NCBI GenBank assembly: GCA_034189385.1
Contig: JAXHVD010000022.1
Span: 8,005 to 72,004 of the forward strand
From: Thermodesulfobacteriota bacterium
GTDB taxonomy: Bacteria > Desulfobacterota > Desulfobacteria > Desulfobacterales > C00003060
DNA: 64,000 nt
Direction: 5' to 3'
The notes under the pieces are model-generated. The model searched no databases. It saw only the letters and a list, made by a program, of their open reading frames with translations, and was not told the origin of the DNA. Position numbers and translations under genes: made by a program. Shown in pieces: positions 7,269-9,594 of the stretch. Position 1 is the stretch's first letter. Each line of letters begins with the position of its first letter.

Positions 7269-8201
7269 TCATGGCCTCGATAGAATCTCTCTGGCTTGGG
7301 TAATATCTTTGTTGATTTGGGTGGCAAGGGCCTCTGGCCCCGAGAATCTCTTTTCTCCTCGTAGCCGATGGATGAAGTTGACGCGGATCGGTTGATCGTA
7401 AATGTCCTGGTCAAAATCAAGGATGTGGACCTCTATGCTGAACTCCCCATTATCAAAGGTTGGGCTGTACCCGATGTTGGCCACACCCTCGTAAGTCTTG
7501 TCTTCAACCTCCACCGTCACTGTGTACACGCCACCTTTGGGGCAGAGCTCATCCGTGAGCCTGAGATTGGCCGTGGGAAATCCCAGCAATCTTCCCCCTC
7601 GATCCCGGCCCCGTATCACCGTGCCTCGAACCTGATAATAGCGGCCCAGTAGTTGCCTGGCTTCCACCATCTGTCCTTCCGCTACCAAGTTTCGAACCTC
7701 CGTGCTGCTGATGCGTCGAGGCCCGGCTTCAACCCATCCAGAGACAATCACTTCAAACCCATAGGTCCTGCCCATGTCCTTGAGCAATGCGATGTTTCCC
7801 TCCCGCTTCTTGCCAAAGGAGTAGTCCTGCCCTACCACCACACCTTTCATGCCAATCACATCGCAGAGGATGTCTTTGACAAATGCGCGGGCCGGGGTCG
7901 CAGCAAAGGCACGGGTAAAGGGGACACATATCAATGTGTCTATACCTGTGGCGGCAATCAACTCTACCTTCTGCTCATAAAGGGTGATGAGACGGAAGTG
8001 TTTGCCACAGTTAAGGACCCGGATGGGATGGGGCTCAAAGGTCATGACTACAGAGGTGCCATTGATGCTGCGTGCCTTTTCCATGACCTGACGGAAAAGG
8101 GCTTGATGTCCAAGGTGGACGCCGTCAAAATTGCCTATGGTGAGGACGGCGTTGTTAAGTGGCGCCGTAATTTCTGCTACATCAGTGATAAGTTCCATCA
8201 T
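7269..8201 (-). CDS. ribF: Riboflavin kinase / FAD synthetase
   Basis: IGNFDGVHLGHQ, ISSTEVR, GFPTAN and EVHILDF motifs. Confidence 0.98.
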   Translation of the reverse strand: MMELITDVAEITAPLNNAVLTIGNFDGVHLGHQALFRQVMEKARSINGTSVVMTFEPHPIRVLNCGKHFRLITLYEQKVELIAATGIDTLICVPFTRAFAATPARAFVKDILCDVIGMKGVVVGQDYSFGKKREGNIALLKDMGRTYGFEVIVSGWVEAGPRRISSTEVRNLVAEGQMVEARQLLGRYYQVRGTVIRGRDRGGRLLGFPTANLRLTDELCPKGGVYTVTVEVEDKTYEGVANIGYSPTFDNGEFSIEVHILDFDQDIYDQPIRVNFIHRLRGEKRFSGPEALATQINKDITQAREILSRP

Positions 8202-8220
8202 GATCGTTCCATTATGTCCC

Positions 8221-8249
8221 TTGACAATGAAGTCAAATCCCTATATATA
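8221..8249 (+). promoter_or_regulatory. Sigma70-type promoter of tRNA-Leu
   Basis: TTGACA-N17-TATATA upstream of the tRNA. Confidence 0.55.
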
Positions 8250-8292
8250 AAGCATTTCATACATAAAATCAATAATTTTCTTCCTTATAGGT

Positions 8293-8379
8293 GCCGAAGT
8301 GGCGGAACTGGTAGACGCGCTAGGTTCAGGGTCTAGTGGATGAATGTCCGTGCGAGTTCGAGTCTCGCCTTCGGCACCA
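8293..8379 (+). tRNA. tRNA-Leu(CAG)
   Basis: Acceptor GCCGAAG/CTTCGGC, anticodon loop TT-CAG-GG, long variable arm, T-loop TTCGAGT, A73, encoded CCA. Confidence 0.98.
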
Positions 8380-8390
8380 GCAATAAAAAC

Positions 8391-8423
8391 AAGGGGTTAC
8401 GTGTATTCACGTAGCCCCTTTTT
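8391..8423 (+). terminator. Rho-independent terminator after tRNA-Leu
   Basis: AAGGGGTTACGTG-TATT-CACGTAGCCCCTT followed by a T-run. Confidence 0.85.
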
Positions 8424-8441
8424 CGTAGACGCAATTCTTGC

Positions 8442-8461
8442 TGGCTACAAAATGGCTAAAG
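8442..8461 (+). repeat. Tandem arm-type integrase-binding-like repeat (left)
   Basis: TGGCTACAAAA-TGGCTAAAG, 11-bp period; same motif at 9401-9422. Confidence 0.65.
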
Positions 8462-8532
8462 TTTGTAAGTCAGATTAGATATATTTTATTTGATATCGGG
8501 TGGTTGAGAGTTGTTACAGGTTAAAGAAAAGT

Positions 8533-8940
8533 TCAGTTTTTTAGCTCTGTTGGATTTTCGTATGTATTACCTATTATTTTAAATGTGTCTGCTGCTTTTA
8601 CTTCTTTTATATGTCCGAAAAATGGTATTTTTTCTTTTCTTCCAATTACATCAACATAAAAAGCTCCATCTTTATACTTTATTATTCCTTTGAAATAATC
8701 TGTTCCCCAAGAAAAGCCATTACTATATCCATAATTAATAATATCTTCCTCATATATTTCTTTTCCATTCTTATCTTTAAGACCTGTGTATTGCATTAAG
8801 ATAAGATTTAAATCATTTGCCATATCAAAAAACTCATTCAGGCTTTTTGTTATTCTTACAGAGCCCTTAATACCTATTCTATCGCCACTGGTCATTTTCT
8901 TTTTTTCTTTATCCCAAGCTCTAAATCTAAATTCTCTCAT
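8533..8940 (-). CDS. YopX-family phage protein
   Basis: MREFRFRAWD...MQYTGLKDKNGKEIYEEDI...IIGNTYENP, the YopX family signature. Confidence 0.95.
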   Translation of the reverse strand: MREFRFRAWDKEKKKMTSGDRIGIKGSVRITKSLNEFFDMANDLNLILMQYTGLKDKNGKEIYEEDIINYGYSNGFSWGTDYFKGIIKYKDGAFYVDVIGRKEKIPFFGHIKEVKAADTFKIIGNTYENPTELKN

Positions 8941-9069
8941 AAGTTTTTGAACAAAAAAGGCGGAACTTAGCAAAGGGAGTAACCACTAACCTTCACCGAG
9001 TTTCCGCCGTTTCTGTTGGTTACTAATTAAAAATAGTTTTAAAAACGTGTATATAAGGACACACAATAC

Positions 9070-9097
9070 ATTATAACATACTGAAATAATTTGTCAA
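9070..9097 (-). promoter_or_regulatory. Consensus sigma70 promoter facing yopX
   Basis: Minus-strand TTGACA-N16-TATAAT. Confidence 0.75.
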
Positions 9098-9166
9098 TGT
9101 GCATAAAACCTCTTATTTTTTAAGCAAAATCCTTCAAAAAAACTTCCTCATGGCCTATTTTTTCTC

Positions 9167-9195
9167 TTGCAATACACCATATGTAGTAGTATAAG
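9167..9195 (+). promoter_or_regulatory. Sigma70 promoter of the island tRNA, overlapped by an NrdR-box-like motif
   Basis: TTGCAA-N17-TATAAG; the spacer contains ACACCATATGTAGT. Confidence 0.6.
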
Positions 9196-9247
9196 AGGCA
9201 AAATAAAAAAGGAGACCCAATATAGGGGGGTCTCCTCTGTTCTAGGT

Positions 9248-9325
9248 GCCCTCGTAGCTTAAAGGATTAAAGCAACGATCTCCCGAATCGTTAGAATCCG
9301 AGTTCGAATCTCGGCGGGGGCACCA
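9248..9325 (+). tRNA. tRNA with anticodon CCC (nominal Gly) on an Arg-like body
   Basis: Acceptor GCCCTCG/CGGGGGC, D stem GCTT/AAGC, anticodon stem ACGAT/ATCGT with loop CT-CCC-GA, T arm CCGAG-TTCGAAT-CTCGG, A73, CCA. Confidence 0.88.
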
Positions 9326-9400
9326 TCTGTAACTGTAAGTTCATTCTCTGCAAAAACTTGACTATTTGTCAACTACTTTTTTGAAAAGTTTAAAAACTTC

Positions 9401-9422
9401 TCGCTAAAGAATGGCTACAAAA
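9401..9422 (+). repeat. Tandem arm-type integrase-binding-like repeat (right)
   Basis: TCGCTAAAGAA-TGGCTACAAAA, 11-bp period. Confidence 0.65.
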
Positions 9423-9539
9423 AACTTTCCTAACCCTTCCTTTTTAGGGTGTTCCCTTCCTAAATCTTCCTATAACTTTTTTAAGGTAATTTAGTTAGTT
9501 AGGTAATATTAGGCGGTTAGAAAAATAGGTGAGAAAACT

Positions 9540-9594
9540 TTCAGGGTCTAGTGGGTGTACGCCCGTGCGAGTTCGAGTCTCGCCTTCGGCACCA
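9540..9594 (+). repeat. att repeat: displaced 3' half of tRNA-Leu
   Basis: Identical to 8325-8379 except in the variable arm (GTGTACGC vs ATGAATGT). Confidence 0.93.

Follow-up and report, generated by a model that had tools for sequence, protein, structure and literature searches.

Organization of the element at the tRNA-Leu gene

The window studied (G000:C15:8005-72004), a stretch of 64,000 nt from a Thermodesulfobacteriota genome, contains a tRNA-Leu(CAG) gene positioned downstream of ribF, the 3' half of which recurs at a spacing of 1215 bp (Table 1). The two copies, designated attL and attR, are 93% identical over 55 nt and both begin at the anticodon loop TTCAGGG, being preceded by a G and a T, respectively. 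Their four differences are compensated changes and lie in the variable arm, and alleles resembling both versions are present in the host genus. The 3' half of the host tRNA-Leu(CAG) was likely contributed by the element, attR likely representing the original, displaced half. The GC content between positions 8325 and 9594 is 0.354, as opposed to 0.51-0.57 in the flanking windows.

Within this region, yopX is the sole ORF with a family match, all remaining ORFs being shorter than 63 aa, and the interior appears as a mosaic of a phage yopX gene, a copy of the host nrdD promoter and a tRNA gene with a phage-like body. A preliminary description, made from the letters alone, had reported the repeats, the AT-rich interior, a terminator, yopX with a consensus promoter and no Shine-Dalgarno sequence, and a divergently transcribed tRNA gene, all of which were recovered here; the terminator is evident in the sequence as a hairpin followed by a T run, although the terminator scan did not call it. 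Hairpins of similar appearance follow tRNA genes elsewhere in the class. Tandem repeats, putatively of the arm type, were found at both ends, sharing an 11-mer that was reached in 10 of 500 shuffles, in agreement with the earlier proposal of a non-autonomous, att-flanked unit formed by crossover at the anticodon loop. Directly past attR, the window encodes a serpin with a lipoprotein-like N-terminus (PF00079; 9884-11227, plus strand), a homologue of which is located on a different contig in the relative G013.

Table 1. Features of the tRNA-Leu-associated element (positions refer to the window)
Feature	Position	Strand	Evidence or remark
Host tRNA-Leu(CAG)	8293..8379	+	ARAGORN, Rfam
attL core repeat, 55 nt, from anticodon loop TTCAGGG	8325..8379	+	Repeat search, sequence
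Terminator-like hairpin and T run after the tRNA	8391..8423	+	Sequence; uncalled by terminator scan
Left tandem repeats, putative arm-type, TGGCTACAAAA then TGGCTAAAG, 11-nt period	8442..8461	+	
Possible integrase 3' tip relic (reads QLSTTRY...), suggestive only	8475..8513	-	14/16 nt match
yopX, intact, 135-aa YopX-family protein	8533..8940	-	PF09643; phrog_98; predicted structure
Extended hairpin in the yopX leader, its terminal U tract immediately ahead of the gene start	8949..9018	-	
Consensus sigma-70 promoter match facing yopX	9070..9097	-	12/12
84% copy of host nrdD upstream region	9140..9197	+	E 1.3e-9 to G000:C3:109541-109598
Parts of nrdD copy: -35 TTGCAA; NrdR box; -10 TATAAG	9167-9172; 9174-9189; 9190-9195	+	
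Hairpin with degenerate second NrdR-like box (9215-9230; 25-bp spacer)	9205..9241	+	5/6 conserved positions
Cargo tRNA, CCC (Gly) anticodon on Arg-type body (A20, A73, C3:G70, G37)	9248..9325	+	ARAGORN, Rfam
Right tandem repeats, putative arm-type, TCGCTAAAG then TGGCTACAAAA, 11-nt period	9401..9422	+	
attR core repeat	9540..9594	+	Repeat search; G013 and G010, both relatives, carry a similar allele

The yopX gene and its leader

The deduced YopX protein matches PF09643 with an E value of 3.9e-25 (88.8 bits; curated cut-off 22.4). Its predicted structure (pLDDT 81.9) was aligned to PDB entry 2qyz over 121 residues (Z 13.8, rmsd 2.7), and a fold search returned four YopX structures (2qyz, 2ox7, 2p84 and 2i2l) at Z scores of 13.8 to 9.3, the next match being at 4.3. 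The protein shares the sequence motifs and, as predicted, the fold of the YopX family (PF09643, phrog_98), and the fold search gave no functional lead past weak SH3/Tudor/KOW-like matches (Z no higher than 4.3). YopX genes are normally found within phage small-gene arrays, whereas the gene studied here is solitary and is preceded by a promoter match and a structured leader of its own.

The absence of a Shine-Dalgarno sequence is shared with 32 of 65 phage yopX starts according to the same crude test. The leader hairpin is more stable than expected (z -3.76, reached by none of 200 shuffles) and resembles an attenuator or a small RNA; Rfam contained no known leader RNA or meaningful match at this position. 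Because this strong hairpin with its U tract is situated between the promoter and the start codon, yopX may be attenuated. In two relatives, the beginning of a hydrolase gene matches positions 9094-9121 over 28 bp; this match was marginal (E of approximately 0.004) and was not used.

The cargo tRNA and its captured promoter

ARAGORN assigned the internal tRNA as Gly(CCC); among the host tRNAs it is closest to Arg(CCT) and Arg(ACG), and its loop, CTCCCGA, differs by one base from that of host Arg(CCG), CTCCGGA. All three host tRNA-Gly genes, including the native Gly(CCC), possess U73 and GCGGG. When compared with the bacterial identity elements listed in Table 1 of PMC9976931, the cargo tRNA was shown to possess A20, C35, A73 and C3:G70 of the tRNA-Arg set together with C36, lacking the U/G36 of that table (given as U/C36 in the text of the same source). 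It likewise possesses G1:C72, C2:G71, C35 and C36 of the tRNA-Gly set of that table, but lacks U73 and G3:C70, for which it has A73 and C3:G70. Judged from these positions, it is an Arg/Gly identity hybrid.

Among 19 viral matches sharing its acceptor stem, ten are called as Arg and none as Gly, with other anticodons in eight cases and one left uncalled. The exact cargo tRNA was absent from the viral contigs and metagenomes searched, and matches in phage records were partial and limited to the T-arm. The cargo tRNA likely derives from an Arg(CCG) gene with its anticodon changed to CCC, and is predicted to be charged poorly by GlyRS and partially by ArgRS. Since the host already encodes a native tRNA-Gly(CCC), the cargo gene could just as well be a pseudogene undergoing drift. 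Eight mostly solitary phage tRNAs on viral contigs (L257, L258, L259, L263, L266, L267, L271 and L274) combine an Arg-type acceptor stem and a short variable arm with GCT, ACT, CTA or TTT anticodons; those with GCT or ACT retain C35 and U36, and could insert Arg at Ser codons.

The region upstream of the cargo tRNA is a copy of host sequence preceding a gene that is nrdD-like by inspection, and is closer to this host region than to the same region of G013 (scores 69 and 36, respectively). Its NrdR box retains all six conserved positions (C4, A6, A8, T9, T11 and G13; PMC13584703), and the host genome encodes nrdR. The second NrdR box of host nrdD, at 16 bp, is missing from the copy, with none at 15-16 bp. 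According to PMC12051234, tight NrdR binding requires two boxes, with spacers of 15-16 or 25-26 bp, Streptococcus using the 25-bp spacing, which is also that of the degenerate second box (Table 1). From this arrangement, NrdR regulation of the cargo tRNA promoter is possible. A second leftward promoter-like site (10/12; 9343-9372, minus strand) is oriented antisense into the cargo tRNA.

Units of the same layout in other genomes

When 401 genomes of the class were searched at the DNA level, a 1305-bp unit was identified at a tRNA-Leu(TAG) gene in a member of another family (G191). Its 55-nt repeats begin one base before the loop, its yopX is oriented towards the tRNA gene and terminates 134 bp away from it, and its cargo consists of two small membrane-protein-like ORFs, without an integrase; among 111 genomes, its tandem arm word was confined to the two ends of this unit. 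A pattern scan of metagenomes identified a further unit (L183), of 1080 bp at a tRNA-Ser(GCT) gene, in which yopX is separated from the tRNA gene by 103 bp and an 18-nt word is common to both ends, as in none of 500 shuffles. In L183, a second integrase-less unit of 781 bp (1165-1944 of the reverse complement) is present in tandem, with a homologous right end and a 134-aa ORF lacking a Pfam or PHROG match.

The three yopX units are thus att-flanked, 1.1-1.3 kb in length and carry yopX ending 100-150 bp from attL, but their cargo is different. Consequently, the tRNA and YopX module envisaged in the preliminary description is unsupported as a fixed combination. That description had also proposed a search for elements with the same ends and other cargo: units of the same shape were indeed found, but their arm words differ. 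The three YopX proteins exhibit 34-35% pairwise identity, rank 48th to 81st with respect to each other in a set of 93 and are unclustered in a quick tree with weak support. No second copy of any of the three units was found.

Nine distinct above-cut-off YopX matches were obtained in the sampled genomes of the phylum, from three overlapping samples (6/401, 2/161 and 4/401, one below the cut-off); two are located in att-flanked units, four in phage-like arrays and three stand alone, and without the genome studied the proportion in such units is one of eight. Forty control regions downstream of tRNA genes yielded no short att-flanked unit, approximately 29 of them being informative and 11 too short or without a tRNA call. 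The genome pattern scan gave 27 matches, three of them with YopX; one (L165) is the G191 element again, counted once, and the other two (L169 and L173) were rejected as units, since a 210-aa YopX-like gene lies beside a tRNA-Arg gene without an att repeat. These two loci (L169 5124-5756 and L173 293-931, reverse complements), from Oscillospiraceae and at tRNA-Arg(CCT), possibly contain a domesticated YopX-like gene. The metagenome scan gave 41 matches, 12 with YopX and three adjoining a tRNA 3' end, among which L183 alone was real; L193, which has a tRNA end in common with L200, was dropped as a weak, non-YopX match. As the scan patterns recover 39/80 and 49/80 yopX genes and 27/43 tRNA/tmRNA genes, most cases are missed. 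The att-flanked yopX units are rare, the genome-wide pattern having recovered the G191 element alone at a sensitivity of well under half.

Absence of an integrase and candidate relatives

The element contains no integrase ORF, HMM match or Pfam match in any of the six frames. The earlier statement that neither an integrase nor a fragment is present stands in this respect, but a possible relic was noted at positions 8498-8513, where 14 of 16 nt match the catalytic-tyrosine region (QISTTQRY) of an integrase fragment in L307. This score, reached by 10 of 2000 shuffles and the best among 39 regions in a post hoc comparison, is suggestive, and the segment may be a relic of an integrase 3' end; it lacks HMM support, and no comparable relic was detected in the G191 and L183 units.

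The left end of the element aligns over approximately 170 bp with an end at a tRNA-Leu(GAG) gene in G376, a genome of the same order. This is the closest left end identified, and the G376 sequence then encodes a C-terminal fragment of a tyrosine integrase (PF00589, 1.7e-7). The corresponding family (L307 269-532; P0121-P0232) comprises 112 relatives, mostly of 312-320 aa, with the motif H[S/G]LR[H/R]RRASIW, and had no match among phage records. It represents a candidate parent or helper. None of the 11 PF00589 matches of the host genome belongs to this family (best 8.5e-10, versus 4e-34), the arms beside the other att sites of that genome differ from those of the element, and a cognate helper integrase is not apparent in the genome, which is 90% complete. 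Searches of genomes and viral contigs recovered no integrase accompanied by the arms of the element; among viral contigs, helper and parent searches gave chance matches or nothing, and no parent phage that carried these arms or had yopX adjoining a tRNA end. A search for tandem TGGCTACA in 37 genomes of the family gave three matches outside the host genome; an arm-pattern search of 401 genomes proved too loose, matching 157 of them, and was excluded from the results.

Three further att-like arrangements were observed in G000. An att pair at tRNA-Arg(TCG), accompanied by arm repeats of sequence TGTGTGAGAA, lies across a contig break (C10:82397-82473 and C4:485-529), with no PF00589 match beside either end. 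A tRNA-Sec island (C31:4024-4121 and C15:7070-7094, the latter just before the window) has an integrase at its attR end, and a 23-nt copy of a tRNA-Glu(TTC) 3' end approximately 80 nt downstream of the gene (C56:56314-56496) is possibly a tiny att scar.

Comparison with known mobile elements

Prophages and islands with tyrosine integrases commonly cross over at tRNA anticodon loops. Phage satellites (PICI, P4 and PICMI) possess their own integrase plus replication or hijacking genes. Loop-crossing prophages and islands with tyrosine integrases (such as L302, L313 and L325) share with the element a core that begins at the loop, a replacement 3' half, a hairpin, tandem arms and a gene oriented towards attL. 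In such elements, as in the ordinary islands of the class, the attL-facing position is occupied by the integrase gene, whereas it is held here by yopX. With phage satellites the element has in common a small size, a presumed helper dependence and a location at a tRNA gene, but it lacks integrase, replication and helper-hijacking genes; being without an integrase, it fails to qualify as a member of that class.

Cis-mobilizable elements (CIMEs) and tandem att accretion are presented, in the sections of PMC5704250 on which this comparison draws, as products of ICE and IME decay, with largely Firmicutes examples. As defined structurally in those sections, a CIME retains attL and attR at a tRNA 3' end and lacks integration and transfer genes, features which the element shares, so that it conforms to this structural definition. 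With regard to decay, its left end is homologous to an integrase-bearing end and its cargo is phage-like, while a parent was not found. Tandem accretion has a look-alike in the L183 array, but no neighbouring element adjoins the unit studied. The yopX units differ from the CIMEs treated in those sections in their length of 1.1-1.3 kb, in carrying a phage gene and in the recurrence of the same gene at the integrase position. Integrase-less, att-flanked elements are already known as CIMEs, and the class is not new.

In a survey of proviruses, domestication is associated mainly with loss of the att core, and YopX is unmentioned in the portion of that survey considered here (PMC13626063). No description of yopX mini-islands, or of a tRNA with an Arg body and a Gly anticodon in a mobile element, was found in titles and abstract beginnings of the open-access literature. 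The repeated occurrence of yopX alone at the usual integrase position appears to be undescribed.

Origin of the element

The preferred explanation, to which we assign a probability of roughly 0.55, is that the element is a CIME-like deletion product, in which a temperate phage or an island of the host lineage would have lost its interior, including the integrase gene, and kept both ends. As its layout around yopX is repeated in two unrelated genomes, it likely represents a recurring type of stranded mobile element. A collapsed prophage had been named in the preliminary description as an alternative, and is here the leading origin. It is favoured because the left end resembles the integrase-bearing end in G376 and because of the possible integrase tip. 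A tyrosine integrase would have crossed over within the 7-nt anticodon loop, supplying a new tRNA 3' half and pushing the old half to attR; exit would now occur only through a related integrase acting in trans or through a neighbour integrating in tandem. The low-GC foreign donor suggested earlier is unsupported, because the attL allele is similar to host-genus tRNA-Leu alleles, the left end is homologous to sequence from the same order and the promoter of the tRNA most resembles that of nrdD from this host.

Repeated survival of yopX during such collapse may be explained by its frequent location in an early operon near the integrase gene, its multiple copies and a conserved, recombinable block of DNA; alternatively, yopX might benefit the lysogen. 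Among 80 phage yopX loci, an integrase was encoded in the fetched flank in eight and at least two yopX copies were present in nine; in L101 and L052, yopX is located 0.7-1.2 kb upstream of a co-oriented integrase gene, and its core DNA is 76-88% identical across 60-80 bp between distant taxa. Counting against collapse, three separate deletions resulting in a like size (1080, 1215 and 1305 bp) and layout, with yopX intact, exceed what simple decay predicts; in addition, two of the nine YopX matches lie in such units as opposed to none of the 40 control regions, no parent phage was found in viral contigs and the integrase relic is post hoc.

The equal sizes, the intact ORFs and the tandem units of L183 keep alive a second explanation, less probable but with a substantial claim, in which the units would form a dedicated family of non-autonomous mini-satellites, composed of att ends, a yopX core and swappable cargo, moved by a helper integrase and served by YopX. 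It is consistent with the recurrence of one layout with different cargo in G000, G191 and L183, with the restriction of the G191 arm word to the ends of its unit, with the homologous right ends of the two small L183 units and with the U-tract hairpin preceding yopX here and, as a weaker look-alike (z -1.44), in G191. However, the L183 leader contains no such hairpin, the units diverge in their YopX proteins, arm words and target tRNAs, so that no common lineage is apparent, and neither a second copy of a unit nor a cognate integrase in the host genome was found. Because the island YopX proteins are as divergent and unclustered as described above, and because phage yopX occurs near integrase genes, in multiple copies and as conserved DNA, CIME-like collapse is favoured over a mobile family. 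That the yopX mini-islands constitute an undescribed family of helper-dependent cassettes moving as 1.1-1.3-kb units across phyla is rather unlikely.

Assembly and state of integration

One unbranched public contig from run X1, which may be the source sample and is thus not independent, covers positions 8350-9594 with no differences, and the depth of the element (34.5) is near that of its flanks (37.5 and 40.8). Short pieces of yopX, likewise without differences, were also present in two other runs from the study that includes X1, and the element sequence is present in marine metagenome runs. The element is real, and misassembly, the other alternative raised in the preliminary description, is unlikely in view of this contig and its depth. 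The single-copy depth favours an integrated state. Contigs, which drop rare excised forms, contained neither an attP circle nor an empty attB joint; of the proposed cassette mobilized in trans, the non-autonomous character was borne out, but no excised form, and no integrase with matching arms, was recovered. It is most improbable that the element is a free circle of 1215 bp or results from an assembly join: short-word graphs can be read either way across the identical 30-nt repeat tail (8350-8379 and 9565-9594), on which the public contig begins and stops, and no listed piece covers the full stretch, but the depth is near one copy, no replication gene is present, attL and attR differ by compensated changes, the pieces from the two further runs are free of differences and other assemblies contain units integrated in the same arrangement.

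In run X3, a 10-nt loose end at position 9540 fits an intact tRNA gene, and may belong to another organism. Run X1 also contains a second organism, approximately 89% identical across ribF (7577-8317) and of similar depth, the depth of the element being single. No RNA dataset was listed with the element sequence, which has no bearing on expression.

Implications for YopX and tRNA biology

YopX is encoded by a common phage gene and has solved structures but no known function, and the units offer a minimal setting in which this gene has its own promoter and leader. The tRNA with an Arg body and a Gly anticodon, situated behind a promoter with an NrdR box, represents a testable candidate for natural regulated mistranslation. 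The conjunction of a cassette family with such a switch, in which the NrdR-controlled nrdD promoter would direct expression of an Arg-charged tRNA at Gly GGG codons and thereby conditional mistranslation, is judged improbable; if the switch were true, the tRNA would be turned on when dNTP pools drop, for example during phage infection.
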